Part shown: positions 15,816-35,289 of the stretch, piece by piece
Position numbering within the stretch: the first letter of the stretch is position 1
How the letters are laid out: each line of letters starts with the position of its first letter
Source of the DNA: a virus
UHGV virus genome: UHGV-0114939
Direction: 5' to 3' (one strand)
DNA: 35,289 nucleotides
The notes under the pieces: generated by a model
The model's input: only the letters and a program-made list of their open reading frames with translations
What the model was told of the DNA's origin: nothing
Databases searched by the model: none
Made by a program: the position numbers and the translations under genes

Positions 15816-16836
15816 TGGTTGCCCCCGTTTTTCCTGGCATTTCGCCACCTTCCAGCAGGAAATGAACGTCACGAACGGCGAGATCCAATATCGCGAGTAA
15901 CGCCTTCAGTCTTTCGTCTCGTGAGGGAGAGTTGCTCACCAGAATGTCGTTAATCACTTCTGTCAGTGTGATGATCTGGCTTGTGCGTTCGAGGGGATCC
16001 ATATGCACATCGTAGGTTTTAATCATGTGCCACCTCCATGCGGATACGACCAGCAAAAAAGCAGACGTGATCGCGCACCAGAGAACGGCGAGCATCGCGT
16101 TCAGACTCGGCAGCAATATGATGAATTTTGGCGGTAATTGTCGGGCAATCGCGGCGAACTGCGGCGATAATCCAGATAAATTGCGGTTTTTGGGTAGGGG
16201 TAGTAGCCAGCATGTGGCAGCCTCCTTGATTGATGGTTTATAGCCACCGCCGGAGGTCCTAAGCTCGCTGGCGGTGGACTGTACAGGGTTAGGACTACTG
16301 GCAATCAAGGAAACCAGCCTGACCGAAGTCAGCCCCATACAGCCCACCATTGATAAGGTGTGCGTGTGCGCCGATACAAAAAAAGACGCTGGCGCGTCAT
16401 GTATCGCCTCGATTGCCTGCGGGGTCCTAATCCCGGCACCCGTTTTATGAGGTGCCTTATAACCATAAACCGTGTTGCCGCATAACGGCAAGCTCTTTTT
16501 TATGGACTCCGAAAACTCAGTATTGGAAGCACCAGATGCACAGTACATCGCGCTCATTTCGTTAACGTCACGCACGTGGACGAATGTTTTTGTGGAGTCA
16601 CTACACGAGCGGAAGACATCATCTACGACCAGAAATTTTCTGGCGCAGCCGCTGACCTTCTCAATGCTAATATCATCGCCCGAGATTTCTGGTATGGTTA
16701 AGGCATCCGTTCCGGCCACCAGCAAATGATAAACTTTGCTTGTATCTGCTGTATTAATGCCTGACTTTGCCGTCATATTTCTGGATTTTGGCGACATACC
16801 AGCCAGTGAAAATGTCTTCTTCTGGATGGGTATCAT
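15808..16836 (-). CDS. hypothetical protein (342-codon open frame; may be composite)
   Basis: ATG at 16836 with GGAGGT RBS and ATGA overlap with the upstream gene, so the start is credible. Internal ORFs with strong RBS at 16213 and 16026, and GC-rich hairpins at 16245-16277, leave the true extent uncertain. Confidence 0.4.
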
Positions 16837-18912: not shown

Positions 18913-20127
18913 TCATGCGTGTTTTTCAAACACCATATGCACCACATTTCCGCCATGCTCGAGAGAATCCATATAGTCGGCATACCATTGAAGCATCTCC
19001 CGCCGTCCATCCAGATATTGCGCATGGTTGTATGTGCCACGAATTGAGTTCTTATCAACGTGAGCGAGCTGCGTTTCTATCCACGCGGTGTTATAGCCCT
19101 GCTCATGCAAAATCGTGCTCATAGTGTGTCGGAACCCATGACCAGTTACACGTCCAGCGTAGCCAATGCGCTTAAACACTTGGTTTATGCTGGCCTCACT
19201 CATTGTTTTCCTTGGATCATTGCGCCCGGGAAACATAAGAGGGTAATTGCCTGTTATTTCTCTAATCTTCCCAATAAGCGAAAGAGCCTGCTCAGACAAT
19301 GGCACAATATGAGGCCGCCGCATTTTCATACGTGAAGCGGGTATCTCCCATATAGCCTTGTTGAAATCAATTTCATCCCATAATGCGCCACGTAGTTCGC
19401 CAGTTCGCAAGCCGGTGATAATCAGTAGACGAGCCGCCATAACAACCAATGCGCTTCCTGAGTAACTGGACAATGCCTTGAAAAAATCAGGTAATTCTTT
19501 GGTCGTAAGGAAAGGGTAATGATTAGATTCATGGCCTTGCATCGCGCTAGTAAGGTCTGGTGCAGGGTTATACTCTGCGCGACCAGTGACTATTGCATAA
19601 CGGAAAACTTCCCCGCACCGCTGCCTCACTTTTTTGGCTTTTTCTGTCGCACCGCGCCCCTCGATGCGCCGCAGCACATTCAGAAGTTCAAGTGGTTTGA
19701 TTTCGGCGATTGGTTTTTTGCCAATGTAAGGGAACACATCTTTGTTGAAGGCTTCGAGGATGTCTGAAGCATAACCAGCAGACCATTTTTTTAATTTGCT
19801 GCTGTGCCACTCAAGGGCAATATCTTTGAAGGTGTTGTTTAACTGCGTTTCCCGGGCAATCTTTTCCTCTCGTTTCGCTTCCATCGGATCGATACCACCA
19901 GCGATACCTCTTTTCGCATCTTCTCGTTTTGCCCGAGCATCGGCTAGAGTAACCTCAGGATACACACCTAGTGCCAATAGCTTCTCTTTACCAGCTACAC
20001 GATATTTAAGTCGCCAGTATTTACCTCCATTAGGTTTTACCAAGAGATACAAACCGCCACCATCGGCCAGCTTGTAAGCCTTCTCTTTTGGCTTGGCTGT
20101 GTCTATTTGACGGGCATTGAGTTTCAC
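18913..20127 (-). CDS. P4-type tyrosine integrase
   Basis: GTG start at 20127 with GGAGGT RBS. N-terminal arm-binding signature LADGGGLYLLVKPNGGKYWRLKYR; C-terminal catalytic HGFRHT and Tyr region RGTYNHAQY. Lies next to the tRNA-derived att core. Confidence 0.9.
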   Translation of the reverse strand: MKLNARQIDTAKPKEKAYKLADGGGLYLLVKPNGGKYWRLKYRVAGKEKLLALGVYPEVTLADARAKREDAKRGIAGGIDPMEAKREEKIARETQLNNTFKDIALEWHSSKLKKWSAGYASDILEAFNKDVFPYIGKKPIAEIKPLELLNVLRRIEGRGATEKAKKVRQRCGEVFRYAIVTGRAEYNPAPDLTSAMQGHESNHYPFLTTKELPDFFKALSSYSGSALVVMAARLLIITGLRTGELRGALWDEIDFNKAIWEIPASRMKMRRPHIVPLSEQALSLIGKIREITGNYPLMFPGRNDPRKTMSEASINQVFKRIGYAGRVTGHGFRHTMSTILHEQGYNTAWIETQLAHVDKNSIRGTYNHAQYLDGRREMLQWYADYMDSLEHGGNVVHMVFEKHA

Positions 20128-20292: not shown

Positions 20293-20328
20293 TGGTGCCG
20301 ATAATAGGAGTCGAACCTACGACCTTCG
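20293..20328 (-). other. att core, copy 1: identical to the 3' end of tRNA-Thr(CGU), including CCA
   Basis: Minus strand reads CGAAGGTCGTAGGTTCGACTCCTATTATCGGCACCA. A 14-nt tRNA 5' fragment GAGCAGCGCATTCG lies at 20372-20385, separated by a 41-nt hairpin-containing insert; no intact acceptor stem, so not a functional tRNA. Confidence 0.6.
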
Positions 20329-20443: not shown

Positions 20444-21646
20444 ATGAAATACAAGCCTAATGCGTACCTTGTTAAAGAAAACTCGTCGGTATACTCCGTC
20501 AAGGTCACTATTCCGCCTTATATGCGTTCCCTTTTTGGGAATCGAACAGCATTCATGCGTACAACAGGCACGGCAGATATCAGGGAAGCCCGAATCATTC
20601 GTGACAAAGTCATGCACGAGTTTTTTGCTATCAGAGACAGACTCAAGCCAAAACCACAACGTAACAGTGTTGATCGCGTCCTGGTGGAACTGCGCTCTAT
20701 CAACCAGCATGTAAGCCAAAATGATGGGATAGACTTCGCCACGGCTCGTGTGTGTCCCTCCCTTGTCCAACTGCGGGATGAATTTATTGTCCAACACAAT
20801 GACAGGCGCAAGCTGTCTACCTTGAGCAAGTACATTAAGGCGGTGGAGGTCTTCACGGCTCATTTCCGGCGTAAGGATTTCCAGTTGCAGGAAATCAACA
20901 GGACTATGGTCACCGATTGGTTAGACAGCGCCAAGCAGGAGAAAGCCAGCCAGACACTGGCGAATTATCTTGGCTGTCTGTCCCAACTAGTGGCACTGGC
21001 TCAGAACCGTTATCACGATGCGCCGAAAGAGAATGTATTCGCGGGCCACAAACTGGACGTGCGCCATGATCGAGAAAGCTACGAACCCTTTAGCGGGGAT
21101 GAACTAGCTAAGGTGTATGCGGTGCTTGATGAAGAGATGAAAGCCGTTGCGATGGTGGGAATGTATAGCGGTATGCGCCTTAACGAAATCTGCTCTCTGC
21201 AAATCAGCAATATCAAAACCGTTGAGGGGGTATGGTGTTTCGAGGTGACGGAGGGTAAGACACGCAATGCGGCTCGCCTGGTTCCAATTCATAGCCGATT
21301 GACGACACTCGTTAAAGACCTCATCCAGAACAACCACAATGGCTTCTTATTCTACCATGCCAGCATCACAGAACGTGCAGACGGCAAGCGCTCAACGTGG
21401 CATACACAGCGATTTACACGGGCTAAACGTAAAGCGTTGGCTGAGAAAGGCACTGAGCGGAAGGTGTTTCATAGTCTGCGGGGAATGTTCATCAGCCAGC
21501 TTGATCGTGGTGGAGTCCCAGAGGACAGGATCGCATTGATTGTGGGTCATGAGCGCGGGAAAACCGAATCATTCCGCACCTATAGCCAAGGGGCTAGCAT
21601 GAAGGAGTTGGCGGATTATGTAGACATTGTCTCACATAGCATATAA
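20444..21646 (+). CDS. tyrosine integrase (site-specific recombinase)
   Basis: ATG at 20444 with GGGGGA RBS. Catalytic-region motifs HSLRGMF and RTYSQG. Diverges from the att core, opposite the element A integrase. Confidence 0.85.
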   Translation: MKYKPNAYLVKENSSVYSVKVTIPPYMRSLFGNRTAFMRTTGTADIREARIIRDKVMHEFFAIRDRLKPKPQRNSVDRVLVELRSINQHVSQNDGIDFATARVCPSLVQLRDEFIVQHNDRRKLSTLSKYIKAVEVFTAHFRRKDFQLQEINRTMVTDWLDSAKQEKASQTLANYLGCLSQLVALAQNRYHDAPKENVFAGHKLDVRHDRESYEPFSGDELAKVYAVLDEEMKAVAMVGMYSGMRLNEICSLQISNIKTVEGVWCFEVTEGKTRNAARLVPIHSRLTTLVKDLIQNNHNGFLFYHASITERADGKRSTWHTQRFTRAKRKALAEKGTERKVFHSLRGMFISQLDRGGVPEDRIALIVGHERGKTESFRTYSQGASMKELADYVDIVSHSI

Positions 21647-21792
21647 AAGTAAAACACACCATAAAAACAGCCAAAAAAAAACAATAGTTATAACTTAATA
21701 AAATTTAATGCTAATTAATTCAAATCATTATCATCTCGCTTCATTTTTTATTTATTTGGAAATATATTGATACAAAAAAGGACGGATTGACT

Positions 21793-22434
21793 ATGACTCA
21801 GCGAATTCAGCAGATCCAACGTATCGTGGAACAGCAAGGAATCACTCAACTGGTACATTTCACTAAGGCCGAAAATCTTCCAAGTATAATGGAACATGGG
21901 ATAGTCCCGATTTCTCGGATTGGAGAGTTTGGTATCACGCCTGCCACTAATGATCAACTTCGCCTTGATGGTCATTTAGATGGTACGTCTCTTTCTATCA
22001 CCTTTCCTAATCACAGAATGTTCTACAAATATAGGCTGGAAAATCAAGGGGTTGATTGGGTGGTGTTAGGTATAAAACCATCTATTCTATGGACAAAGGA
22101 TTGCGCGTTTTGTCGCCACAATGCTGCGGATGCTCGAATAAGCGTCAAGGCATTGGATGATTTGAGGCTTCCTGAATCACTTGCGGGAATGTTTAGCGAG
22201 ATAGACGGGTATGAAACACGAGATGGTCAAAAACTTTTAACATCCGATCCAACAGACGAACAAGCAGAAGTGTTAGTTTTTGATGTAATTGAACCTGAAC
22301 TGATCTTAGGGGCGGCCTTCAATAGCAGAACCGCAAACACACTTTACCAAAATCTCTTCGGAGAAAAAAAGATTATACTTAATGACAAAACCAATGGTTT
22401 ATTTGGTTCTCGTTCATTTAAGCGTAAGTGGTAA
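21793..22434 (+). CDS. DarT-like (DUF4433) DNA ADP-ribosyltransferase toxin candidate
   Basis: Track start at 21787 is TTG; ATG at 21793. N-terminal LVHFTKAENLPSIMEHG and C-terminal DEQAEVLVFD match the DarT hallmarks H-F-T...NL.SI..G and QAE-hLV (from memory). Lower GC than flanks. Confidence 0.65.
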   Translation: MTQRIQQIQRIVEQQGITQLVHFTKAENLPSIMEHGIVPISRIGEFGITPATNDQLRLDGHLDGTSLSITFPNHRMFYKYRLENQGVDWVVLGIKPSILWTKDCAFCRHNAADARISVKALDDLRLPESLAGMFSEIDGYETRDGQKLLTSDPTDEQAEVLVFDVIEPELILGAAFNSRTANTLYQNLFGEKKIILNDKTNGLFGSRSFKRKW

Positions 22435-22438
22435 AACA

Positions 22439-23146
22439 ATGGCACAAAGGCCCGTATATATACCTGTTAAAGAAAAATCACTCTTCGTAAAAACTGAGCT
22501 TGTAGATTTTACGTGGTTCCCGGGAATGTCAGTCTCACAAAAGCAGAAATCAATTGACTCGCTCCATGAAGCAGCAAAGACAAGCCTGCCTAATGTGGAC
22601 AAAATCCTTGAGATTTCCAGCAAGTCCCGTGAAACCCTCGGTGTTGCACTGAGTGCTTTCAACCTTTCTTTCACGACCCTGAAACAGCAACGTACATTAA
22701 CTATCGAAAGTGCGTTTCAAGGTAGCAAAGTGTTCCAACGTGGGGGTCCATATACCGACATGTTCGACATGACTCCTCGCGAAGCCAAAAAGGACAAGCG
22801 TTTATTGACCTCTGGCAGACTGACCGGATTCAAATTTTTTGGTAAAGAATGGGAACTGGAGCCACGTACTGCATTTTATGATTGGCTGTATATAAGTGCA
22901 TTGAAAAAAAGTACCGAGCTAGCAGAGCAACTAATTGAATATTCAGCATTTACTGACATAGAGTTCAATCCTGAGCGCTCGATAAATTGCCAAGCATATT
23001 CTGCGGCATTATATGTTTCATTATACAAACAAGGCATTCTTGATGATGCCATTGCATCTAAAGAGAGTTTCCTAGAAACGATCAAAAGTGCATCAATAAG
23101 TAATGCTCTTCAAGATGAAACAACTCAATCGGGCTTTGGGTTTTGA
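22439..23146 (+). CDS. hypothetical protein, cognate partner of the DarT-like gene (no macrodomain or NADAR signature seen)
   Basis: ATG at 22439, 4 nt after the DarT-like stop. 235 aa lacking the Gly-rich loops of macrodomains and the NADAR motifs. Confidence 0.6.
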   Translation: MAQRPVYIPVKEKSLFVKTELVDFTWFPGMSVSQKQKSIDSLHEAAKTSLPNVDKILEISSKSRETLGVALSAFNLSFTTLKQQRTLTIESAFQGSKVFQRGGPYTDMFDMTPREAKKDKRLLTSGRLTGFKFFGKEWELEPRTAFYDWLYISALKKSTELAEQLIEYSAFTDIEFNPERSINCQAYSAALYVSLYKQGILDDAIASKESFLETIKSASISNALQDETTQSGFGF

Positions 23147-23437: not shown

Positions 23438-24478
23438 TTATGCTGTTGGTAATAGCGTCATCTTACAGACCAGATCCGGCCTGAAGTTGTATGCCATGAG
23501 GCTGTATTCACTATATAAATTCCGATTTCGTAACTCGTCGAAAGCTCTGTATGCGTACCAATCTTCAACATCACCAGAAGCGGAGATTTCAAGATGGCGA
23601 GCACATGGACCAATGAAGCGTCCCATAGGCAAACTCTGCTCAACCGGAGCATTTCCAAAGACCGGAACAAGGAAAGCCTCGTTTGACTTGATACCGCTGA
23701 ATGCTGAATCGCTGACTTCGATCAGACGCACAGAACCCAGCATAAACGAACTAAAGCCTGGCAGAACATCAGACGGGAACAGCACATCAGAACCAACCAG
23801 CCCGTTTGAATAAACTAGCAATTCACGAATCTGAGGAGAATATCTCACAGCACGGTAGGCATCAGATCCGCACAGCAGAACCCAACCACGCAGATATTGA
23901 GTTAGTCCACCCATCAGCGCTTTAGTGGCGCTAACCTGATCGTCAATGTCGCGCATCGGGTCATCATTCACACCTTGGTGCAAATCAGCGGTTCGCTGGT
24001 TCAGGGAGAATTCTACAGCCCAATCGATCTCATTTTGCTGAGTACCCCAAGCGTTAACTTTATTGAAAATCAAAGCCTGCCAATAGGCATATTCACGTGA
24101 GCGCTCAAACTTGGCACGCATCTGAATAAACTTGTTGGCCTCAATCTCATCAAGAGACTGCTCCATAGTGCTGCCAGGTTTACGGTAACCTTTGAGATCT
24201 GCCGAAGTCACACGGTCAGTCACACCAGACCAAGGCAATTCGTATAAATACGAGCCTGCTGTCGGCTTCTCGATAGTCCCCCACTCCGAACTGAAACGCA
24301 TCAATGGCGCATCCACACCAATAGATGCCTCTTGGATACGATCCATACTAACTTTGTGGGAATCTGCGATCTGACGGTCTGCAAATACATCAAGGTGAGT
24401 CAGCAGTAAATTGCTCTGCGGAACCTGAGTACGGAAGACCTTGCTGTAATTAACATAATCGAATGATTTAATAGCCAT
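23438..24478 (-). CDS. major capsid protein, lambda gpE-like
   Basis: 346 aa (lambda gpE is 341) directly downstream of a gpD-like gene; C-terminal architecture loosely parallels gpE. Distant similarity judged by eye only. Confidence 0.55.
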   Translation of the reverse strand: MAIKSFDYVNYSKVFRTQVPQSNLLLTHLDVFADRQIADSHKVSMDRIQEASIGVDAPLMRFSSEWGTIEKPTAGSYLYELPWSGVTDRVTSADLKGYRKPGSTMEQSLDEIEANKFIQMRAKFERSREYAYWQALIFNKVNAWGTQQNEIDWAVEFSLNQRTADLHQGVNDDPMRDIDDQVSATKALMGGLTQYLRGWVLLCGSDAYRAVRYSPQIRELLVYSNGLVGSDVLFPSDVLPGFSSFMLGSVRLIEVSDSAFSGIKSNEAFLVPVFGNAPVEQSLPMGRFIGPCARHLEISASGDVEDWYAYRAFDELRNRNLYSEYSLMAYNFRPDLVCKMTLLPTA

Positions 24479-24501
24479 TTTTGAAGTCCTTTTCTTGTTT
24501 G

Positions 24502-24852
24502 TTATTCTGCGATGACAGCATCGTCAGAGGTCAGGCGAATGTTTCCGTTGGCGGTCAATGCTGCTAGTGCTGCATTTGTTGCTGAACCCATTACGGCGCG
24601 GATTGCTTCTGGGTACACATAAATTAGGCGGTCAGCCACGATGACAGGAACATCAGAACCTGCCTCAGCGTAGGAGAGGCACAGAAGCGCATCAGTCCCA
24701 GAGGTGTAAAGCGTTCCGGTAGAGGTCACCACGGAACCTGGTTCCACAGCCTGTACGAGTGTCGCGAATACAATCGTTCTGCGGTCAAAATTGGCATATG
24801 CCGAATTTTTCACCACGTTGTTATACGTTTTTGGATAATCTTCCAGTTTCAT
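24502..24852 (-). CDS. head decoration protein, lambda gpD-like
   Basis: 116 aa; ATG at 24852 with GGAGAT RBS. LIYVYPEAIRAV resembles the gpD region EDVLWPEAAS. Precedes the capsid gene as D precedes E in lambda. Confidence 0.55.
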   Translation of the reverse strand: MKLEDYPKTYNNVVKNSAYANFDRRTIVFATLVQAVEPGSVVTSTGTLYTSGTDALLCLSYAEAGSDVPVIVADRLIYVYPEAIRAVMGSATNAALAALTANGNIRLTSDDAVIAE

Positions 24853-25494
24853 AGTCTTGAATCTCCATTCAGGTCATCGCCAATGATGGCGTTATTATTT
24901 CTCTGGCAAATTTGCCATTGAGGGGCGAAAAGAAAGCCGCTATCAGCGACTTCGTTCACTTCGTTTTCCATACAGAAAAAGACCAAGGCGAGAATATCCC
25001 GCCTGGTGTAGGTCAGTAGTTTTCTGATGGAGAGATTTGGAAAGCATGAGTGTGTTCACGCTTCAGGAATAAGGAGGCGGCAACGCTCCAAAGAATGGGT
25101 AAGGAGACCCAAAAACGTTGCCACCTGATGCCGTTAGTGTCCGGCTGACAGCCTTCCGAGGATGAAAGGGCTTTGGCAAATCTCCGATCCAAGGTCGGAG
25201 AAAATTCTTTTCTGATACAGCCAGCGGCTATGGCTTCACCTTCCCGTGAGAGAGTGCGGATTATTGGCTGTATGAGAAAAGGCCCGCACGGTATTCACAC
25301 AGGCACTTTATATTTCGTAAGAGAAGGAATGACAACGGCTGTTGTACGCACATACAATTTAAATCATCACCCTATGCAATTATTTTAACACGAATGATTA
25401 TCATTTGCAACAACAAAAACAATAACATGGCGAATTTAACGGCCCTCTCTCGTGTGGGCCAATTTACTACGTCATTTTTGACGGAACGATGATT

Positions 25495-27636
25495 TTAGTC
25501 CGCAATCCCAAGGATGAGGTTATTCTGCGCCTGGTTGTTTTCCCTTATCTTGGTATCAACCAGCCCTGCGATCTTATCGTCATGGACAAACACATCCATC
25601 TGCTGATTAATGTTCGCTTGCCCGGTAACACTGACAGGAATCGGCTGTCGCTGCGTCATGCTATCAATTGTCGGAACCGTGAACGTTGGTTGCTGGGGTG
25701 TTAGATAGTTCAGGCCAGGAACATTCAACGCTAGCGCTGGAACGTTATACGCCGTGCCTGAGCCGATACTGCTCGAAGCGGAACTATTCAGCCACGGGTA
25801 AATCTGTTTCAGAGTCTGACCGATGCTACGTGGATCAAAGCCGGTCTTTTCCTTAATCCAATCGGCAGCACCGTTTGCGGAGTCATCTACCACGCTCGTA
25901 TAAACCGCATCCGGCAATGTCGCGCCTTTCTTGAGTTCTTCACCAACTCGACCAGCGAAGGAGAGAATGTTGGTGGTTAGCTCACCAAGGGCAACGCCGA
26001 GGGAATCGGAAATTGGGATCAGTCCAGTCATATTCTGACGTAGAGTGTCAGTATTGGCAGCGTACTGCCCCAGGCCTTCAACAAACGAGGCTGAGAAGTG
26101 ATCCGCAAGGCTGGTTTGTACTCGGTTGTACTCAGCCCCCAAAGCTGCCAGCTTATCAAGGTTGGCCTGCTGTGCATCAGATAGCGTCCATCCTTCAGAA
26201 GCGAGTTGATGCATACGCTGGATAAGTCCCTGCCCCTCATCATTGAACACTTCGAGGAAGACCGAACCATCATTTACAGCCTCAGCCAAGTGCCGGGTCT
26301 GGTTGTTCGTCCATTTGAAAGTTTTCTGCAACTGTTTCAGGTAAGTGATGAAGGTCGGAAAATCCAGCTTTTGCAGTTCTCCGATCACCTTCTGTGCTAC
26401 CTTCTGGTTGCCGTTGGTGGAGGTCAGCACGTTGTTGATGATATCTGCGAACTCGCCACCGCCGCTGAAATTCACCTGTCCAGTTTTCTTGTTACGTTTG
26501 AAAGAGCCGGTGTTCAGCAATTCCCCGGCCTTTTCGGTTGTGTCCTTGTTGAGGTCAGCCAGCTTGTCAGCACTCAGTGAGTAACCAACACGGCTCATTG
26601 ATAGATCCTGAAGTGCTGCAAACTCAAGGTTGCTGATCCCATACTGCTGGAGTTTTTTCACATCGCGAGAACGCTCAAGGCTTCCCTGAAGGGTCTGACC
26701 AACACGAGAAACGCCCATACTACCTACTAACGCCGCACCACCAATAACACCAGCGGCAGCAAGACCTACACTCCCACCACGGCTTTCTGTGCGTACACGA
26801 CCAGCACGAACACCTGCGGTTTTCTGCTCACGGGTAGTACGTTGTTGCAAACGAGCCTGCTTGCGTAATTCTGTGGTGATACGAGCCATTTCGAAGCGGG
26901 TCTCTTCGACCGTATAGCGCTCTTCTTTCTGGGCTTTGAGTGCCTCTTTTGCTGCACTGATCGCTTTATAACGGGTTGCAACGCCAGCGCCGTTCACGTT
27001 TGCCAGAGTCAGAGCGCTACGGCGCAAACTGTTGTAATAAGTCACATCGCGCTTAAGGCCTGCCTCTTTCTCACGCTGACGCTTTTCCTCCAGGGCCATC
27101 GCCTTTTTGGTGGCTGCGATGTCAGCAGCAACAGCGCCGTGACCACGGTTCATTGCTTCAGTCTGGCGAGAAACAAGACCGGGATCGTAATGTTGACCGC
27201 CCATGTTGGGGTTGTAGGTCATCGCGCGGGAGCGACTCGCCTGTCTCACCTTTTCAGATATTGCTGCTAAACGGGCATTCTGACGTGCTGCCTGTTCCTG
27301 TTGGGATAACTGGCGAGCCTGTAATGAGGTCATTTTATTGGCGTGGGCGATTGCGTCCCGCTCCATTTTGGCTTGTATCTGAGCTTGTTTCTGTTGCTGT
27401 TTTGACAATTGTTCAGCCTGTCGAAGTTTCGCAGTCTGGGCTTTCGCTGCTGCTAGTGCTGCTTTGCCTTCACTCTGGGCGGTACGCTTCTGTGCCTTCT
27501 CAAGCGCTTTAGCGGGTTTCTCGTGAGCAGCCTTAAGCGAAATTATCTTCTTTTTGGCTTTTTGATATGAGGCATCGTCTGTGATCCACGAGATTTCATT
27601 AACGGTGCTGGTAACAATCTTATTGGTCCCACTCAT
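25495..27636 (-). CDS. tape-measure-like protein (coiled coil, Ala/Gln-rich, internal hydrophobic Gly-rich segment)
   Basis: 713 aa; ATG at 27636 overlaps the upstream stop (TAATG). Segment GSVGLAAAGVIGGAALVGSMGV and long A/Q/K-rich helices are typical of tape-measure proteins. Confidence 0.5.
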   Translation of the reverse strand: MSGTNKIVTSTVNEISWITDDASYQKAKKKIISLKAAHEKPAKALEKAQKRTAQSEGKAALAAAKAQTAKLRQAEQLSKQQQKQAQIQAKMERDAIAHANKMTSLQARQLSQQEQAARQNARLAAISEKVRQASRSRAMTYNPNMGGQHYDPGLVSRQTEAMNRGHGAVAADIAATKKAMALEEKRQREKEAGLKRDVTYYNSLRRSALTLANVNGAGVATRYKAISAAKEALKAQKEERYTVEETRFEMARITTELRKQARLQQRTTREQKTAGVRAGRVRTESRGGSVGLAAAGVIGGAALVGSMGVSRVGQTLQGSLERSRDVKKLQQYGISNLEFAALQDLSMSRVGYSLSADKLADLNKDTTEKAGELLNTGSFKRNKKTGQVNFSGGGEFADIINNVLTSTNGNQKVAQKVIGELQKLDFPTFITYLKQLQKTFKWTNNQTRHLAEAVNDGSVFLEVFNDEGQGLIQRMHQLASEGWTLSDAQQANLDKLAALGAEYNRVQTSLADHFSASFVEGLGQYAANTDTLRQNMTGLIPISDSLGVALGELTTNILSFAGRVGEELKKGATLPDAVYTSVVDDSANGAADWIKEKTGFDPRSIGQTLKQIYPWLNSSASSSIGSGTAYNVPALALNVPGLNYLTPQQPTFTVPTIDSMTQRQPIPVSVTGQANINQQMDVFVHDDKIAGLVDTKIRENNQAQNNLILGIAD

Positions 27637-27959
27637 TACACCCCCTGCTGCTTGATGATATTGCCGTATCGATCAGGATCGGATTTTGCGAGAGCAGCAG
27701 CCGCTGCTTTAGCCTTCGCCAGTATTTCAGGATCGATATGGTCAGCGGTATGTGAGACAACCGAACGACTATCAGCACCCAACGATTTTTTAATCCGTTT
27801 GGTGGGGGTGTCAGACGAGGCTGATTTGAGCAACTCCGGATGTTGATCTAGAAAGTTATCGGTGACGCTCTTCAGATTGTCCCGCGCTTTTTGGAGTTCG
27901 TATTCCTCCGGTGTCATGCCATGCATGGCGGCGAAAATCCGGTCTTTTATTGTGGTCAT
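27636..27959 (-). CDS. hypothetical protein (possible tail assembly chaperone by position)
   Basis: 107 aa; ATG at 27959; immediately precedes the tape-measure-like gene. Confidence 0.45.
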   Translation of the reverse strand: MTTIKDRIFAAMHGMTPEEYELQKARDNLKSVTDNFLDQHPELLKSASSDTPTKRIKKSLGADSRSVVSHTADHIDPEILAKAKAAAAALAKSDPDRYGNIIKQQGV

Positions 27960-28073
27960 TTTTATAGTATCTCCAGAGAAGGATGCTCCCGCCGATCAGG
28001 ACGTGACGAAGCGCCACCCAGATCCAAAGCAGGAAAAAGATGTAATCAAAGTTCATTGGCTCCCGATGTGGGA

Positions 28074-28547
28074 TTATTTGGATTTACGTTTAGTGCGCTT
28101 CTTCTTCACTGTCGGCAGCTTGCAGATATTCGCGAACACGTCTGGGTAGTAACCCAACATTTCAGCGTCAGTGATCCCGGCGTTATGCAGGTAATATCGA
28201 AGGCTGACGTATGACAGACCATCGCAACGCTTGCGGATCTGTTCCGGGTGCATCCGATGTGACCACATTTCACGGACAAATTCTGTCCGGGCTCTCGGTG
28301 TCATCATCGCCCAGGTCACCGCTTGTTTTTGACGTGCGAGCCGCCAGACTTCAGCGAACGGCAGATCTAGGGTATTAGCGACAATATGCGGTGAAAATCC
28401 ACGATTAAGCAATAAACGGGCTTTGCGTTGTGTTTCCGGATCGGAAGGTTTGGATCGGGATTTATATGTCGGTTTCTCCAGAATGGAGAACAGGCGGGAT
28501 AGCTGGATTTCTTCTTCGGCGCTCAGGCCGTTGGCAACATCACACAA
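28074..28547 (-). CDS. hypothetical protein with HTH-like region
   Basis: TTG start at 28547 with strong GGAGGA RBS 5 nt upstream; basic C-terminus KKKRTKRKSK. Confidence 0.5.
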   Translation of the reverse strand: MCDVANGLSAEEEIQLSRLFSILEKPTYKSRSKPSDPETQRKARLLLNRGFSPHIVANTLDLPFAEVWRLARQKQAVTWAMMTPRARTEFVREMWSHRMHPEQIRKRCDGLSYVSLRYYLHNAGITDAEMLGYYPDVFANICKLPTVKKKRTKRKSK

Positions 28548-28562
28548 TTATTCCTCCAATTG

Positions 28563-29474
28563 CTAAAACGGTTCGTCATCATTAAATTCAAGCTGCTCAT
28601 CCTCTTGCTGCTGCGGGGTATTAGTAGCCTGTTTCGCTTCGGTTGCTCTTCGCGCCTGCTGCTGTTTGTAATAAGCATCAGGACCGGATGAAGTATCGTT
28701 AGCGGCAGACCTCGATCCTTTGTATCCATCGCTCTGGATGATTCTGATATGGCTCTTTATCAGATCTGTTATCGCACCAGGTTTTTCTATCCCCCACATC
28801 GCACCATAGGCCATAAATCCTTCATCGTCGTAGCCTTCTACCCAGTTGTTGAGGGTATCGATATCTGCCATCTGGGGCTGGTCTGGGCTTTTGACTGTTG
28901 GGAATTGGATTGCATTTCCACCATTCACCGCATCATCACCACCGGATAGATCAGCATCGACAGGAACACCCACAGGAGGTACGCCGTCTCGCTTTCCAGC
29001 ACCGCCCTGATCAGATTCGCCATCACCTTTTTTCTCCTCGTTTTTTGGCTGTTGACTAGATTTTCCTAAGCGTTTCTCATGGTCATACATTGGTTCTCCA
29101 GCCCACTCTGGGTAGGAAAACTCCAGATTTCCAGCGACCTTATCAACATCGATCACTTTATAAATATTGCAACGCCCGACCTTTCCAGTGATTTCAACTA
29201 GACCAAGAGCGATCAGCTTATCGATCTGAGGCTTTGTTTTCTTCTTGGCGTCACCGATTCGAGCAACGGTCCCTAGACGCTCCTGCGACTCAGCAAATGG
29301 CTGTTTCAAGCCTTTCCGATAACGGTACTGATTAAGCATATAAGCGTATAATTTTTCTAGTGAATTGCTAATCTCAACCACTTCACCAGTGGATTTATTT
29401 GTAACCGTGTCTGCATGGAAAAGGCGATTCTCGCTCTTGTAAAAACGCTCATTGGTGTTTCCGTTCTGGCTCAT
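28563..29474 (-). CDS. hypothetical protein, possible winged-helix replication initiator-like N-terminus, acidic C-terminus
   Basis: ATG at 29474 with GGGAGAA RBS. N-terminal LEKLYAYMLNQYRYRKGLKQPFAESQERLGTVARIGDAKKKTKPQIDKLIALGLVEI resembles the lambda O N-domain style wHTH (weak, by eye). Confidence 0.45.
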   Translation of the reverse strand: MSQNGNTNERFYKSENRLFHADTVTNKSTGEVVEISNSLEKLYAYMLNQYRYRKGLKQPFAESQERLGTVARIGDAKKKTKPQIDKLIALGLVEITGKVGRCNIYKVIDVDKVAGNLEFSYPEWAGEPMYDHEKRLGKSSQQPKNEEKKGDGESDQGGAGKRDGVPPVGVPVDADLSGGDDAVNGGNAIQFPTVKSPDQPQMADIDTLNNWVEGYDDEGFMAYGAMWGIEKPGAITDLIKSHIRIIQSDGYKGSRSAANDTSSGPDAYYKQQQARRATEAKQATNTPQQQEDEQLEFNDDEPF

Positions 29475-29637
29475 GTTGTTCTCCCTGTGGGTTCGTCAGT
29501 GGTTGTTCATTGCGTTTCTGAATGTGTTTCGCCAGGTTCTGGCACATGTTCCGGATCATCCTGGGAACCGGCATCCCGAGGCGGTCAGATTCCTCGCGTA
29601 AAATTGCATATGTTTCATCGTCTAAAGATAGTTTCAT
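29449..29637 (-). CDS. putative ribbon-helix-helix DNA-binding protein
   Basis: ATG at 29637 with GGGGGGAA RBS. MKLSLDDETYAILREESDRLGMPVPRMIRNM has an RHH-like strand-helix pattern. Overlaps the start of 28563..29474 by 26 nt. Confidence 0.4.
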   Translation of the reverse strand: MKLSLDDETYAILREESDRLGMPVPRMIRNMCQNLAKHIQKRNEQPLTNPQGEQHEPERKHQ

Positions 29638-29765
29638 CTCAAGTTCCCCCCGAATGCATAAAGGTTATCGCCCCTGCGATCACGGTGGCGATCAGGGGTA
29701 AGGAGTCGTGTTTGCGGCGATTTCGTTTGGTGGCGTTGCTGCCAACGGAGTAATGCAGAGAATGG

Positions 29766-30194
29766 TTATTCGGTTGTGGTCAGTTCGGGAATGGCTTTTC
29801 CGATAATGCCTTCGAGTTCACCGCCAGACTCAATCATCTTAAGCAGAAGGATCTGCTCATTCATCAGACCGATGCCATGAGAGGCGTAATAGACACGCCA
29901 GGCAGACAGCACTGGTTCAATGATTTCCATAACATCACGGCCTTTTGCCAACTCTGCTGAGTACGGTTTAAGAATATCCCGGATGATTTTTGCGTCTTTC
30001 GCTTGCTGACGCAGGCGTTTAATGATGTTCAGTGCTTCGCGAGTAGCTGGATAGAGCTTATCGGCTTTCTTGGCACCACCCATACGAGTACGGAAGGCGT
30101 GAAGGTTTTGAGCTGTGGTAATTTTTGCATCGATTGCAGCGACAATCTCTGAGGCAGTGGCGTTCGAGAAATCGAACAGAACAGGTTTCCCCAT
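29766..30194 (-). CDS. hypothetical protein, first gene of the leftward operon
   Basis: ATG at 30194 with AGGAGAG RBS; 142 aa. Confidence 0.55.
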   Translation of the reverse strand: MGKPVLFDFSNATASEIVAAIDAKITTAQNLHAFRTRMGGAKKADKLYPATREALNIIKRLRQQAKDAKIIRDILKPYSAELAKGRDVMEIIEPVLSAWRVYYASHGIGLMNEQILLLKMIESGGELEGIIGKAIPELTTTE

Positions 30195-30825
30195 GTATCT
30201 CTCCTATTTAAGTTATTGTTTAGTCATAAAATCATCTCAGTTGATAATATATATTTTATAGTAAATTAGTTTATTTGTCAACCGATTTCTCATTTAATTG
30301 ATGAAGTAATTGATGTGTTTTTTGTCAATACCCCGCAACTTTATACACAGACCTTTTCTTTGTCAAGCCCCCTAACCACAAAGCGCTCTCAGACGCTTAA
30401 GATTCAACGCTGTAAGCGAAGCGGTACAAAGTCACCAGCAATAGGAGAAAGACGCTCTGAAGGAGACAGGGAGCGTTACAGGGCCGCTTGCATCATGGCA
30501 TCGCCACCGAGAATCACAGGGCCGTTATAGCCTTGTGAGATTGAGGGGGGACCGCCGCCCCCAGGGGGGGAGTGTACGTCGCGTTGCAAGCTCCTCTGCG
30601 CCGTGCTCGATCCACATTGACTGACGCGCCTCGCGGCTTGTCTTCCACACATATCTGAAGTGGCAGAGCCATTCAGAGCAGAGCGATACAGAAGCATCAC
30701 TCCTTAACACCAACAATTGAACGCATGTTCAACCAGTCTTTGACCCGTCTTTAGATCTTGACCTTAAGTCTTACATGGCTTTAAAAGTCTTTATGGGTTT
30801 TATAATCTTATTAAAAAAGTCTTTT

Positions 30826-30947
30826 TAGTGGGGTGTTTTTACCCCCATTACTGGCACTCTATAGGGGTATATTTACCCACATACCAAAATTCAATAGGGG
30901 TGTATTTACCTACATTCAAATTCCTATAGGGGTATTTTTACCCCCAT
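30826..30947. repeat. four 23-bp iterons (GGGGT-N6-ACCCC type) at 32-34 bp spacing; putative replication origin of element B
   Basis: TAGTGGGGTGTTTTTACCCCCAT (30826), TATAGGGGTATATTTACCCACAT (30860), AATAGGGGTGTATTTACCTACAT (30893), TATAGGGGTATTTTTACCCCCAT (30925). Confidence 0.55.
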
Positions 30948-31937
30948 GCGAGAGCATCTCACCACTTACCTTTCTTCAGTGGTCTGCTTCTCAATGGCCC
31001 ACAGCACCTAGGGATATTAAATGGTGCTTAAATCGAATTAAGTGTCCCTTAAGTCGCCATTTCTACCACCTATTGTGGGGTTGTAGTCACTTGCTCGCCT
31101 GTGGGATGTGGTGATCGTTATATCGAGATGTACACGACGAAGCCGCGCCAGTGCTGAATGCGTTAAATCCGTCAACCAAATGTGTGTCAAACCAGTTTAC
31201 CGATCCGCCCTTCAATACCGAAAAAATAAATTTTCTTCGAAAAAACAACTGAAAACCCTCTATTCCTAGGCCTATGGGAGCTTCTCAGCGGGCGCTGTGC
31301 TATCGGTGGGTCAGTTCACGATTGTGTGGAGATAACGCCGCTACGGGCTTCTGGTGGAGAATACGGGACTATTGGTGGGACTGCTTGCGCTGGTGTGGGA
31401 AAAGGTACGTATCCGTGACCTGTTAGGGCGGGAGAATTTCGCCTGTTGGGGGCTGACGTAGTGGCCTGCTGGCAGGTATAAGAACTCACCTCTAACTTAC
31501 ACAATGTACATGTGTAAGTTATCAAATCATTGATTCTTATGAGATGTGTTGTGGATGAACATCTAAGAGGCTGTCTTATGCAGAATTTATGCAGAATCAG
31601 GCAAGGTTTATTCATTACTAGAGCCAGCATATGTGGTGTGCAAAGGACTACCCTTCGATATTTTAAAATGATGTTTCATTTTCATTGAACCATCATGGAG
31701 GGGGGTTCAGCACATCAGCCCATGCGCAGGGAGTCCGTAACCGGATGAAGCCACGCTTCACAGCCAAAGGCTGCTAGGGATATTTTCCGACAATGATATC
31801 TGAAGAGTGGCCCCCACTTTCGTTTCCCACCGCGCGGGAGCGGGTGCAATAGCATATAAAAAACCCTTTACAATGATCATATTATGATCAATATTTGCTT
31901 TGTAACTTACTTAATGAGATAGCAATGGGGGAATTGT

Positions 31938-32498
31938 ATGAAGAAGGTCGAACCAGTCAGAGACAAAGAGAAGATCGCAGAGGTTGAAAGACTGCTGCGT
32001 CAGAATAACAGCAGCGCTATCTACGGTGATTTGTGGGTGTTCCTGAATCAGACAGCGGCGCGTATTGGTGACGCTCTCAGGTTGCGTTATACCGACTTTA
32101 ATCACATCGAAGGGAACGTGTTGAATCTGAAGGAACAGAAGACAGGGAAAATCCGCTCGATCATGCTGACTGCCAAAGCGCTTGAACTGGTAGCACAACG
32201 CCGTGCTGATAATCCCGGTCATGAATACCTGTTCGAAGTGGACAGCAACCGGGCCAAAGGAAAACCGATCAGCCGGGTGACGGTCTCAGCCAAATTCAAA
32301 GAAGCCGGAGATATGCTCAATTTGCACATTGCGGCGCACAGTCCACGCAAGAACCTTGGCTATCACGCTATAAAACGTGGGGTAAGTCTGCCGACGCTCA
32401 CGAAGCTGTACGGGCATTCATCGCAGGCGGTCACGCTGGCGTATTGTGGGATCATGGATAAGGATGTCGAAGACGTTTTCCAGACTATAGATTATTGA
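31938..32498 (+). CDS. small tyrosine recombinase, FimB/FimE-like (catalytic domain only)
   Basis: 186 aa; ATG at 31938 with GGGGGAA RBS. Catalytic-region motifs HSPRKNLGYHAIKRG...LYGHSS...LAYCG (H-x-x-R ... H ... Y). Confidence 0.75.
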   Translation: MKKVEPVRDKEKIAEVERLLRQNNSSAIYGDLWVFLNQTAARIGDALRLRYTDFNHIEGNVLNLKEQKTGKIRSIMLTAKALELVAQRRADNPGHEYLFEVDSNRAKGKPISRVTVSAKFKEAGDMLNLHIAAHSPRKNLGYHAIKRGVSLPTLTKLYGHSSQAVTLAYCGIMDKDVEDVFQTIDY

Positions 32499-32589
32499 GT
32501 GAAAATAATACTGAGTTGAATTATGTTGTGGTTAATTAATGCAAAATGAAGGCAGGAATAAGTTCCCACCTTCACAATAAGTAGTCGTA

Positions 32590-32799
32590 TTATTCAAGTC
32601 GAGATTTATTTTTATTGACATATGGATGGAATTCGCCATGAGTCAGTCTTGCTTTTCCAAGAGATGACTTGAGCTCTGTCCCCATAGTTCTTAAGGTACT
32701 TCTATTGGAAGCAGTTTCTCTTTTATTTACTTTCTTAGCGTGATAGTTCATTTCATGATCTTCAGAAAAATTCACATACTCATGATCACTGATTGCCAT
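32590..32799 (-). CDS. hypothetical small basic protein
   Basis: ATG at 32799 with GAGGAG RBS; 69 aa, Lys/His/Asn-rich; low-GC region. Confidence 0.5.
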   Translation of the reverse strand: MAISDHEYVNFSEDHEMNYHAKKVNKRETASNRSTLRTMGTELKSSLGKARLTHGEFHPYVNKNKSRLE

Positions 32800-33130
32800 T
32801 GCTTAGCTCCTCGCTAGTCCAATTAGACAGAAACAGAACTTCTATAAGAAACATCTTAAACATACTGTAACAACGTTTAGAAGTATGCAATTGCAATAGT
32901 TATTAATGCACGCTATAAACTTATTTGATCGCAAAAATGTGATCTTACGCAAATTTCACTGCGTCTCTTATCCTTTCCTTTTATTCCCTATCTTGCGGAT
33001 GATGCTCATGCTGCAACCATCGTTGCAACGAGCTTCCTCGTAATGCCAACAGCTGTATCAATAATTCTTACAGTCGCCACTGTGCTGACTAATATTCCAG
33101 ATATACATTAATCCTATTAATCACGGAAGT

Positions 33131-33766
33131 TTATTTTATAAATGCCAAAGTTTTAAGAATTTTTCTCAGTTTCGTGAGTTGTTCTGTTTTTTCGAGATCA
33201 GCCAAATTATCATCAATACTTTCTAAACAGAGGGTTATTCTTGACATAACCTCACTATGAATCTGTTTCAACCCCTCTCCATACTTGGTTGCAATATGGA
33301 AGGTCTGCTCAAAGTTGAATCGATGAATATCCTTCTGGGTATCATGATATATTGTTTGGAGTTTAGATAAATCCTCCAATATTTGATTATTCATTCTGAA
33401 AGTATCCACAAGACTTCTTGCTGAACCATAGCAAATAACAATTGATTTCATCGTGTTTTCATTGATGGACGTTAAGGCAAAAGAATTACTTTCATAGAAA
33501 GAGAAGTAATTTTGTGTTAGCGGAAATATATTTTCAAATGGTTTTCCACCTTCATACTCTTCGAGAGAGTCATATATTCTTTTTTTATAAAGCTCGAGTA
33601 ACGTTTCTATTTCTGCTTTAATACCTACCAACACACTTTTTTGTTTATCTTTTGCTTCATGATCCAAGGCTCTTTCTTGTCTGCGCCCATCGATGAGCGT
33701 CCCCCATAAGGTGAAAAGACCACCAATGAGAGCACCAATTAAACCAGATGCCAGTTCGCTACTCAT
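33131..33766 (-). CDS. hypothetical membrane-anchored protein (N-terminal transmembrane helix)
   Basis: ATG at 33766; N-terminus MSSELASGLIGALIGGLFTLWGTLI then a charged helical region; low-GC gene. Confidence 0.6.
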   Translation of the reverse strand: MSSELASGLIGALIGGLFTLWGTLIDGRRQERALDHEAKDKQKSVLVGIKAEIETLLELYKKRIYDSLEEYEGGKPFENIFPLTQNYFSFYESNSFALTSINENTMKSIVICYGSARSLVDTFRMNNQILEDLSKLQTIYHDTQKDIHRFNFEQTFHIATKYGEGLKQIHSEVMSRITLCLESIDDNLADLEKTEQLTKLRKILKTLAFIK

Positions 33767-34289
33767 ATCATCTACCTGTGGTTATTTTATATCCACGATG
33801 TTACCGCAACCTTTTGGACAATAGAAGCCATAAAGCCCCGTTAGTGGTACAGGCAACAAGCGGAGCGTAGCGACTTCATCAGATTGTAAGATAGATCACA
33901 CCTTATCAGGGTGCTCGTGTACCGTCAGGAGCGTGAGCGAAGCGCTGGCAGAGCCGGATCTGTAGCTACCGGGGCATTACCACTAGTACCTGTTTACGTG
34001 GCTCATAGGGCCACACATCGGGCTTAAATGCGTGTAATCAATCTGTTTCGGGATGGTTTAGAGACGTTGGCGGCGTCATCAGCTTCGAGTTGATAGCGAT
34101 TCGTGTGGACTGTTCACGCCTTGTACCTGTTCGAGCTTTACAACTACAGGCCGCTACGTGCTAACATCCCTGAATAGCCACTGTTAACCATAGCGGCAAC
34201 TGTTGGTCATAGAATCCCTTAAAAAAAGATTGTACCTTGAGAACGAAAATCGTCTTAAGCTATTGTTTTTAAAGGATTTTGTTGTGTGA

Positions 34290-34333
34290 GTGCCGATAAT
34301 AGGAGTCGAACCTACGACCTTCGCATTACGAAT
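34290..34333 (-). other. att core, copy 2: 44 bp identical to tRNA-Thr from the anticodon loop to the acceptor stem (no CCA)
   Basis: Minus strand reads ATTCGTAATGCGAAGGTCGTAGGTTCGACTCCTATTATCGGCAC. Shares 34 bp with copy 1; flanks are not tRNA sequence. Confidence 0.6.
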
Positions 34334-34513
34334 TAGTAGAATCACATTTAACTAACTGTTTTATATGTACATCTCCGCATTCACATTGCACAACTCGATG
34401 GCACATGAGGCAAGAAAGGGAATGACGTTTTACGGCGTGTGACACAAAAATGACACACGATAAGAATACATCCACAGCACGTATGGCATATCGCGCACTG
34501 TGGACATTTAGCA

Positions 34514-35065
34514 TTACTCTAAAGCAGGGAATCTTTTATACAGCGTAGAGATCTCTACATTAAACTGAATTGAAATTTCCTGCCGAGATTCACCGTCCAT
34601 GATGAGCCTTCCCATCTCTTTCCACTGTTCATCAGTAAACTTCGGCCTACGTCCACCGACTCGCCCTTTTGCTCTGGCGACGGCCAGACCAGCTAAAGTT
34701 CTCTCACTGTTAAGGTCTGACTCGTACTGTGCCGCAGAAAGAATATTGCGGAAATTGTAGCGCCCGCTGGCGGTTTTCAGATCTACACCATCGGTAATAC
34801 TGCGGAAGTTGATACCCTTTTCCTGCAACTGCTGGAACATCAGCAACGCATGCAGGACGTTGCGCCCGATCCTGTCCAGCTTCCAGACCACCAGTTCATC
34901 CCCAGCCTGCATAGTGGTGATCAGCCGCTTCAGTACCGGACGATTAGATTTTCTCCCGCTTGCATGCTCTTCAAAAATGTGATCACATCCTGATAACTCA
35001 AGGGCAGAGCGCTGAAGTTCAGTATCCTGATGGTTTGTAGATACTCGGGCATAGCCGTAAATCAT
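34514..35065 (-). CDS. serine recombinase, DNA invertase family (Pin/Hin/Gin-like)
   Basis: ATG at 35065 with AGGAGA RBS. N-terminal catalytic motif GYARVSTNHQD, VVWKLDRIGR, and C-terminal HTH (ISTLYKR). Confidence 0.9.
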   Translation of the reverse strand: MIYGYARVSTNHQDTELQRSALELSGCDHIFEEHASGRKSNRPVLKRLITTMQAGDELVVWKLDRIGRNVLHALLMFQQLQEKGINFRSITDGVDLKTASGRYNFRNILSAAQYESDLNSERTLAGLAVARAKGRVGGRRPKFTDEQWKEMGRLIMDGESRQEISIQFNVEISTLYKRFPALE

Positions 35066-35140
35066 GGGAATTTCTCCTGTTATGAAAACAGGAGAAACGG
35101 CGAAATATCGCCAGGTTATCAGGGGTTATAAAAAAGGTTC

Positions 35141-35289
35141 CTATTCCGGTTTATCAGGCCATTCAATATCCGGCGCTTTCGACGTTTCCACTTCCCGCAC
35201 AGCTTTGATGTAGTTCATCCAGGCTATCAGACTGGCTTTATCTTCATCGCTGATAATGCCTAACTTTAGCTCAGCCTGCCAGAAGCTAA
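35141..35289 (-). CDS. tail fibre assembly protein, C-terminal end (5' part outside the window)
   Basis: Hand-translated minus frame ends ...ISDEDKASLIAWMNYIKAVREVETSKAPDIEWPDKPE with stop at 35141-35143, matching the conserved Tfa C-terminus (compare ...[25 protein letters not shown]). Confidence 0.7.
   Translation of the reverse strand, partial: SFWQAELKLGIISDEDKASLIAWMNYIKAVREVETSKAPDIEWPDKPE

Follow-up and report, generated by a model that had tools for sequence, protein, structure and literature searches.

A catalytic-domain-only tyrosine recombinase and a single palindromic site in a 14-kb thrW island: a candidate resolution module next to a cargo hotspot

Introduction

What does a very small tyrosine recombinase do near the end of a mobile island, beside low-GC genes that resemble no known family? 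The question is raised by the UHGV virus genome UHGV-0114939, a stretch of 35,289 nucleotides (hereafter the window) that is a single metagenome contig (ENA ERZ1755961 NODE_853) and contains a 14-kb island inserted in the tRNA gene thrW, in which a recombinase of 186 amino acids (aa), here called REC, is encoded. An earlier note on this DNA had likened REC to FimB and FimE and proposed that it operates a local DNA switch, possibly making its neighbours phase-variable. We find instead that REC is accompanied, across distant lineages, by one palindromic site upstream of its own gene, with which it may form a module for the resolution or cyclisation of the island. The earlier interpretation was wrong on its central point, the switch, and right about an intact minimal recombinase next to exchangeable cargo. 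The relevant question for REC is that of the resolution or mobilisation of a mobile island, not that of phase variation.

An intact recombinase reduced to its catalytic domain

The REC gene is preceded by the Shine-Dalgarno sequence GGGGGA, and its product matches PF00589 over residues 16-170 (Pfam, 68 bits against a cut-off of 27.1, E 1.1e-18) and the PHROGs family phrog_216 "integrase" (E 3.5e-34), both its fold and its catalytic residues being those of the tyrosine recombinase superfamily (PF00589). The catalytic hexad (R42, K68, H134, R137, H160 and Y169) does not vary among 17 homologues with identities of 43-98% and lengths of about 186 aa, and the ratio of nonsynonymous to synonymous substitution rates (dN/dS), calculated against seven relatives, amounts to 0.04-0.10 wherever synonymous sites are unsaturated. 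These values indicate an intact gene under purifying selection. Because its length is kept, its hexad invariant and its dN/dS this low, REC is not the truncated integrase pseudogene that the earlier note had named as the alternative to its own proposal.

No N-terminal core-binding domain is present, as seen both from the Pfam span (16-170 of 186) and from the AlphaFold2 model (pLDDT 87), which consists of the catalytic domain only and reaches template-modelling (TM) scores of 0.6-0.74 to the catalytic domains of XerA, XerH, Cre and lambda Int. REC is a tyrosine recombinase of which only the catalytic domain is left, its six catalytic residues all being in place, which agrees with the description in the earlier note. 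Its top sequence matches are Xer-type recombinases, the best NCBIfam score being 51.5 bits against cut-offs of at least 220. The proposed likeness to FimB and FimE holds for architecture and fails for family membership: REC aligns with FimB end to end (hhalign probability 93%, 23% identity, REC 13-170 on FimB 15-177), so that the architectural comparison is a fair one, but it matches neither NF007370 nor NF007371 at E <= 0.01 (NCBIfam, cut-offs 221 and 222 bits), models on which FimB itself scores 458 bits and the relatives of REC 26-59 bits.

A single palindromic site in most recombinase loci

Alignment of the non-coding DNA upstream of REC revealed a perfect 11-7-11 palindrome, TAACTTACACA-ATGTACA-TGTGTAAGTTA, which we consider the candidate cognate core site of the recombinase. 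This 29-bp sequence is placed 445 bp upstream of REC and about 550 bp from a set of iteron-like repeats; it has no second copy in the 35-kb window, and such a palindrome did not arise in any of 100 shuffles. A scan of one genome per species gave 37 loci encoding a REC relative (individual loci are cited by L numbers). When the full ±10 kb were scanned around the gene, 31 of 35 REC-bearing loci had exactly one site, always upstream of REC, at -382 to -445 in enterobacteria and at -74 to -131 in the Pseudomonas group, with the consensus TAAYTWACASA-N7-TSTGTAARTTA. The arms are conserved and their changes are often mirrored in both arms (L011 has ACAGA...TCTGT in place of ACACA...TGTGT in the window; the arms of L029 read TATTCCTCAAA...TTTGGGGAATA), while the central bases vary freely. 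Analogous sequences lie upstream of more distant homologues: a palindrome AATGAGACACA-N7-TGTGTCTCATT on an Enterococcus plasmid, another, AATACACTTT-GCT-AAAGTGTAT, in an Escherichia coli glyU island, and ACAACACTTT-type repeats in a Streptococcus satellite. The palindrome has the features of the core sites of single-site modules, namely arms of 11-13 bp, a spacer of 6-8 bp and one copy per replicon.

One site per element rules out intramolecular inversion, and the local switch finds no other substrate here. A search for inverted repeats flanking a promoter-sized segment found none; the highest-ranking inverted pairs within 30150-34400 are short and imperfect, with a complementarity of 74-92%, and do not exceed chance. 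This also holds for the best-looking one, 30789-30803 with 33821-33835 (13 of 15 bases), which no assembly shows inverted. Nine other assemblies that encode the identical REC protein align collinearly to 30000-34333 of the window (97.9-99.98% identity), the whole 4.3 kb being in the same orientation with no reversed piece. Phase variation through simple sequence repeats was considered too, and no such tracts were found.

Comparison of the relatives places the recombinase in the backbone of the island. In Pseudocitrobacter, Pseudenterobacter, Citrobacter and Dryocola, genes for a tape-measure-like protein, a DUF6945 protein and proteins of 62 and 142 aa are followed by 1.75-2.1 kb of non-coding DNA and then by REC, as in the window, REC being syntenic after the 142-aa gene in L002-L005; DNA similarity to these relatives covers the upstream non-coding region and ends at the REC stop codon (32498-32499). 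Two IMG/VR contigs delimit the conserved block further, homology to both L122 and L123 beginning at 31199 and that to L002-L005 and L123 ending at 32496-32499. In L122, positions 31199-34333 are found at 96.8% identity on a very different backbone (its capsid protein is 25% identical), and L123 shares 31199-32496 (83.8%) and the terminal stretch of the island (85%) with other cargo in between. L122 and L123 show that the block is modular. REC is a conserved backbone gene of the island and not cargo. About 25 loci of Pseudomonas and other gammaproteobacteria encode a REC 38-45% identical to ours, adjoining variable DNA that is closed by an integrase of the tyrosine or large serine type; in the Pseudomonas REC-bearing islands (~11 kb) no capsid gene could be recognised. 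In E. coli, a relative of the island is without REC and has the same slot, terminal stretch and thrW, with other genes that include one for a DUF4145 protein.

The glyU island of E. coli (L050 6148-10900) represents the same architecture built from different parts: its terminal element is followed by cargo, by a 71-aa gene, by a 192-aa mini-recombinase (28% identical to REC, E 4e-27) and by a gene-free stretch of 2 kb. The position of the second catalytic histidine reads Q in this recombinase, and some drift in catalytic residues does therefore occur.

Two further features of the relatives may be mentioned. A small open reading frame (ORF) of ~70 aa with a signal peptide (MKKILLFVVALLPLAAHAG...) lies directly 3' of REC in most of them (L001 4160-4375, also L002-L005, L007 and L123); it is absent from the window, where cargo begins right at the REC stop codon. 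A protein of ~710-750 aa with tape-measure-like similarity in its N-terminal or central part (window 25495-27636; L033 4605-6806) is the other gene common to enterobacterial and Pseudomonas REC-bearing islands.

A candidate module for resolution or cyclisation

Our preferred explanation, held with moderate confidence, is that REC and the palindrome form a resolution or cyclisation module of the Cre/loxP or Xer/dif kind. REC would bind the 29-bp core site upstream of its own gene and act on this site alone; wherever the island exists as multimers, or its packaged DNA is concatemeric or terminally redundant, copies of the site would stand in direct repeat, and their recombination by REC would give circular monomers, ready to be inherited or to integrate. 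The position of the palindrome, near the iterons and in an island with its own Rep-like gene, fits such a role, as plasmid resolution sites are often found near replication iterons.

The distribution of the homologues fits replicon maintenance. Full-length ones (34-40% identity) occur on 987 plasmids, of which 517 are from Enterococcus and 203 from Bacillus, and in 161 phage or satellite records; they are encoded just upstream of the terminase genes in temperate phages of Streptococcus and, in PICI-like streptococcal satellites, at the end opposite the integrase. A role that plasmids, phages and satellites could all share is the conversion of multimers, of concatemers or of DNA with terminal redundancy to monomeric circles, and this is the role that we favour. 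None of these distant counterparts appears to have been characterised. The full-length homologues include those at L127 9496-10038 and L128 5001-5543.

Several points weigh against this explanation. Four of the 35 REC loci have no site under the filter used. The operator of a dimeric repressor could just as well take the form of a palindrome whose centre varies, and the Pseudomonas-type sites extend to a 13-3-13 symmetry that is more operator-like than recombination-site-like. REC is without the core-binding domain with which Cre and Xer clamp DNA, and a catalytic-domain-only protein with an upstream cis site is also the signature of MOB_M relaxases (PMC8152469, PMC6414798). Finally, the explanation presupposes that the island replicates or is packaged as multimers.

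We regard the pairing of recombinase and site across distant lineages as the most useful of the new findings. That catalytic-domain-only recombinases with a co-evolving lox- or dif-like site constitute a widespread, uncharacterised module is better supported than an integron-like exchange of cargo (see below), and such a module would give satellites, phages and plasmids a RecA-independent means of converting concatemers to monomer circles. With a size of ~1.3 kb the pair is compact, and its conservation spans Enterobacterales and Pseudomonas. Should it prove to be a minimal Cre/lox-like system, the return of small islands to monomers once they have been replicated or packaged would be accounted for, and the pair might be used as a very small recombination tool.

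Possible roles as relaxase or regulator

As the main rival to this explanation, REC might be a MOB_M relaxase of the MobK, TcpM or MpsA kind, with the palindrome-bearing non-coding region upstream as its origin of transfer (oriT), in which case the island would be an integrative mobilisable element that uses a borrowed conjugative pore. MobK, TcpM and MpsA have kept the catalytic domain and the nucleophile and are without core- or arm-binding domains, and their oriT are intergenic, contain inverted repeats and lie just upstream of the gene (PMC8152469, PMC6414798). MOB_M relaxases are moreover reported to be abundant in chromosomal islands, often mis-annotated as integrases, with 96% of them near an integrase (preprint 10.64898/2026.01.13.699239). 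REC corresponds to this description in its architecture, in its single upstream site and in the presence of an integrase in the island, and 548 of the 987 plasmids with REC homologues are conjugative or mobilisable. The sequence comparison, which was made here with TcpM (the published MOB_M profile has a cut-off of 84 bits), nevertheless gave an hhalign probability of 10.5% over 53 columns, a relationship at the superfamily level only, and REC scores higher against Xer recombinases and FimB. Homologues next to terminase genes in Streptococcus phages and in satellites would have no use for an oriT, the island combines capsid-like and tape-measure-like genes with no other transfer gene, and a symmetric 11-7-11 site whose spacer evolves freely resembles a typical recombination core more than a nic region. 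We consider a relaxase unlikely here; if REC were one, an island bearing a capsid gene would also be mobilisable by conjugation.

It is distinctly improbable, in our view, that REC has ceased to act as a recombinase, or does so only in a minor way, and is instead a site-specific DNA-binding regulator that represses its own gene or switches the divergent backbone operon, or that it assists the 400-aa island integrase in excision or integration. A regulator would account for the half-site TAACTTAC at 31903-31910, which lies between the predicted -10 box and the REC start and is conserved in L002-L005, and for the Pseudomonas palindrome, which is located ~100 bp upstream of REC at the expected position of a promoter and can be read as an operator-like 13-3-13 sequence. 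The candidate promoter of REC itself (TTTACA-17-AATATT) has ATGATCA repeats inside its spacer. Yet the full catalytic hexad, tyrosine included, is invariant down to 43% identity and under strong purifying selection, and this would be unexpected for a pure DNA binder.

The cargo slot and its conserved outer edge

The low-GC block noticed earlier downstream of REC extends from the REC stop codon to a conserved non-coding terminal element (32499-33818); its GC content is 35.7%, the island having 46.3% and the window 47.3%. It holds genes for a 69-aa basic and a 211-aa N-terminally anchored protein, as the earlier note had described them. Both are opposite in strand to REC and converge on it, and they would be transcribed towards REC and end at a shared terminator-like hairpin. 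The 69-aa protein has no match in Pfam, PHROGs, NCBIfam or PADLOC; the 211-aa protein has sub-threshold Pfam matches only (the best being LapA_dom, 19.8 bits against 28) and none in PHROGs, NCBIfam or PADLOC, which bears out the absence of a recognisable family. The hydrophobic N-terminus of the latter, SGLIGALIGGLFTLWGTLI, is followed by RRQER, and positive charges after the membrane helix suggest that the remainder forms a cytoplasmic bundle, predicted by the model as a generic four-helix bundle. Homologues of the 211-aa protein keep its length at 53-87% identity with a dN/dS of 0.045, and those of the 69-aa protein measure 67-69 aa at 63-83% identity; by this conservation both genes are real and under purifying selection.

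The two genes are not a conserved pair or a two-gene system, since homologues of either are found in unrelated surroundings where the other is missing. In E. coli, the 211-aa protein has its closest homologue (82% identity, listed in ~498 index blocks of the collection) in a gene that occupies the equivalent slot of the glyU island, where it converges on the 192-aa recombinase and has as neighbours 184-aa and 139-aa genes and no 69-aa gene; more distant homologues are in unrelated variable regions. Those of the 69-aa protein stand alone, in P4-type islands, prophage-like regions, an Erwinia chromosomal site and another hotspot (L106). A DUF4145 protein in the same slot in E. coli is also 211 aa long; that the 211-aa protein is a diverged DUF4145 was dismissed at an hhalign probability of 0.1%.

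The content downstream of REC differs in every relative, and 32499-33818 is therefore a cargo hotspot, with REC and the terminal element as its conserved flanks. In relatives the slot is taken by genes for DUF4145, AbiJ-NTD4, RelBE, STAND NTPase, Tlde1 toxin and DUF1493 proteins, along with orphan genes. The genes beside REC, which the earlier note had called cargo, are horizontally exchanged. They are most likely "moron" genes of the conflict or defence type, swapped by recombination in the conserved flanks. A defence or abortive-infection role is plausible from context, namely from the genes found in the slots of relatives and from a DarT-NADAR pair in the island itself; it speaks against such a role that neither protein has detectable homology to a defence family (none was matched in PADLOC-DB v2 at E <= 0.01) and that the fold of the 211-aa protein is generic.

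The terminal element marks the outer edge of the hotspot. Its similarity among islands stops abruptly at ...ACGGGGCT, where variable cargo starts, and it always borders variable genes of the conflict type (DUF4145, AbiJ-NTD4, RelBE or the 211-aa gene), which may face either way. Of 5426 complete E. coli genomes 1162 contain it, at ~70-91% identity; it also occurs on 68 enterobacterial plasmids, and lies about 300 bp from a displaced tRNA end in three island families (thrW here, glyU in L050, and L062, where the tRNA 3' end is one that we take to be leuX-like). It may be an end that the island needs in order to integrate, to be packaged or to transfer, or no more than a homology arm. Other explanations were discarded: that of a phage cos or pac site, as blastn against 50,697 phage records gave no match; that of a structured RNA, as Rfam gave none even at E <= 1 and the RNAalifold consensus is weak (-18 and -16 kcal/mol for 160 nt on the two strands); and that of a promoter of the cargo, as RelBE is transcribed towards the element on plasmids. 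Nor does the element contain a conserved ORF. Together the slot and this widespread element mark where enterobacterial islands keep exchangeable conflict genes, which makes the 211-aa and 69-aa genes reasonable candidates for screening.

One could imagine that REC captures and exchanges circles of accessory genes, in an integron-like manner, between its own stop codon and the terminal element. This would explain the sharp junctions on both sides of the slot, homology among relatives breaking exactly at the REC stop codon and a second time at the edge of the terminal element, as well as cargo in either orientation. We judge it very improbable: arm-like half-sites at or inside the cargo block number 5 against 6.8 expected, with none above chance at the junctions, a repeat search found no repeated cassette-end sequence, the terminal element is common without REC nearby, and conserved flanks with homologous recombination account for the pattern, as they do at the hotspots of P2 and P4.

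As for a FimB/FimE-type invertase that flips a promoter segment and makes the low-GC genes phase-variable, we give it hardly any credence: REC is minimal like FimB and FimE, aligns with FimB over its whole length and lies beside accessory genes, but with the single site, the chance-level inverted repeats and the collinear assemblies reported above goes the fact that the cargo downstream of the same recombinase differs or is absent in relatives.

The island and its surroundings

The features of the island are compiled in Table 1. Its borders are two exact 34-bp copies of the 3' end of thrW spaced 13,995 bp apart, and no whole tRNA gene was found in the window; in several isolate genomes the same island adjoins proA-proB-phoE, that is, the thrW locus, and in other genomes intact thrW-proA adjoins it. 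By gene content this is a satellite-like integrative island, with an integrase whose homologues adjoin REC-bearing islands, capsid-like, tape-measure-like and DUF6945 Rep-like genes, and iterons. The capsid-E-like and tape-measure-like genes are the only phage-type genes recognised, and scans with general libraries (SatelliteFinder was not run) showed no portal, terminase, Sid/Psu or AlpA gene and none of the hallmark genes of P4, PICI or PLE. The backbone block is completed by the 62-aa and 142-aa genes. A literature search on DUF6945 gave nothing, and a paper on jumbo-phage islands (PMC12595487) deals with different elements. A first cargo slot, between the integrase and the capsid-like gene, contains the DarT-NADAR pair, whose place is taken by a GNAT acetyltransferase gene in the E. 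coli relative of the island.

Table 1. Features of the thrW island in the window (strand given as + or -,. where none is assigned).
Feature	Coordinates	Strand	Basis or remark
Left 34-bp direct repeat (3' end of tRNA-Thr thrW), left island border	20295-20328	.	Exact repeat
Island integrase, 400 aa, full-length tyrosine recombinase	20444-21646	+	PF00589, SAM-like and DUF6538 N-terminal domains (Pfam)
DarT toxin, 215 aa, first cargo slot	21787-22434	+	Pfam PF14487, E 5.9e-19
DarT1-associated NADAR antitoxin, 254 aa, first cargo slot	22382-23146	+	Pfam PF22397, E 7.6e-94
Island backbone block	23438-30194	-	Pfam, PHROGs; synteny in L002-L005 and L001
Capsid-E-like gene	23438-24478	-	Pfam/PHROGs
Tape-measure-like protein, 713 aa	25495-27636	-	Pfam/PHROGs
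DUF6945 Rep-like protein	28563-29474	-	Pfam/PHROGs
Four iteron-like repeats, ~33 bp, probable replication origin	30824-30952	.	Repeat search; Tandem Repeats Finder period 32, 2.7 copies
REC module, conserved with its site, promoter and gene and moving as a block between backbones	31199-32498	+	Homology limits in relatives
Candidate cognate core site, 11-7-11 palindrome	31493-31521	.	Alignment of upstream non-coding DNA
Candidate REC promoter	31867-31895 (with half-site, 31867-31913)	+	Promoter scan; putative function
REC, 186-aa catalytic-domain-only tyrosine recombinase	31938-32498	+	ORF list, Pfam, PHROGs, homologues
Terminator-like hairpin between REC and the 69-aa gene	32546-32575	-	Consensus scan: 13-pair stem, then T run
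Hydrophilic basic protein, 69 aa, pI 9.4, cargo gene 1	32590-32799	-	Shine-Dalgarno GAGGAG; homologues
211-aa protein, N-terminal membrane helix and predicted four-helix bundle, cargo gene 2	33131-33766	-	Homologues; model
Conserved non-coding terminal element ("CNE"), core 33819-33954	33819-34093	.	Between cargo slot and att site
Right 34-bp thrW repeat, right island border	34290-34323	.	Exact repeat; next prophage starts beyond

Between the 142-aa gene and REC lies a gene-free stretch of 1.74 kb (30195-31937). A GC-rich part of it (30450-30720) is 90% conserved with the E. coli relative, and 31113-31937 is well conserved, with only the palindrome and the promoter accounted for.

The island is the middle one of three mobile elements in tandem at thrW. 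On its left a P22-like prophage (1-20291) ends in a P4-type integrase at 18913-20127 and carries at 16267-16455, on the minus strand, a C4 antisense RNA (RF01695, 80 bits) beside isrK (RF01394, 63 bits), which is an ImmI-type immunity region. On its right (34324-35289) begins a phage with a relationship to Citrobacter phage Omnitron; the Pin-like serine invertase at 34514-35065 belongs to this phage, outside the island, and is unrelated to the finding on REC.

Comparison with known systems

Among the systems with which REC can be compared, Cre/loxP of phage P1, XerS/difSL, XerH/difH and TnpI/IRS of Tn4430 all have the recombinase gene near its one site, and the REC gene likewise lies shortly downstream of a single site with inverted arms; it differs from them in consisting of the catalytic domain only (186 aa) and in having no sequence membership in these families. 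The MOB_M relaxases MobK of pIGRK, TcpM of pCW3 and MpsA of SGI1 resemble it in architecture, in the inverted-repeat cis site upstream and in their location in islands near an integrase, whereas REC is shorter, lacks the elements that extend them at the N or C terminus, and is not accompanied by an MpsB-like partner. With FimB and FimE it shares the minimal type of ~190-200 aa with no separate core-binding domain, and unlike them it comes without an inverted site pair, an invertible segment or an orientation polymorphism among assemblies. The cargo slot, for its part, is like the hotspots of P4-like, P2-like and PICI elements, a fixed place near the end of the element where unrelated, often low-GC conflict genes are swapped, and the second slot of the island, with DarT-NADAR, conforms to the same pattern. 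What sets the island apart from P4, P2 and PICI is its backbone of capsid-E-like, tape-measure-like and DUF6945 Rep genes, iterons and REC.

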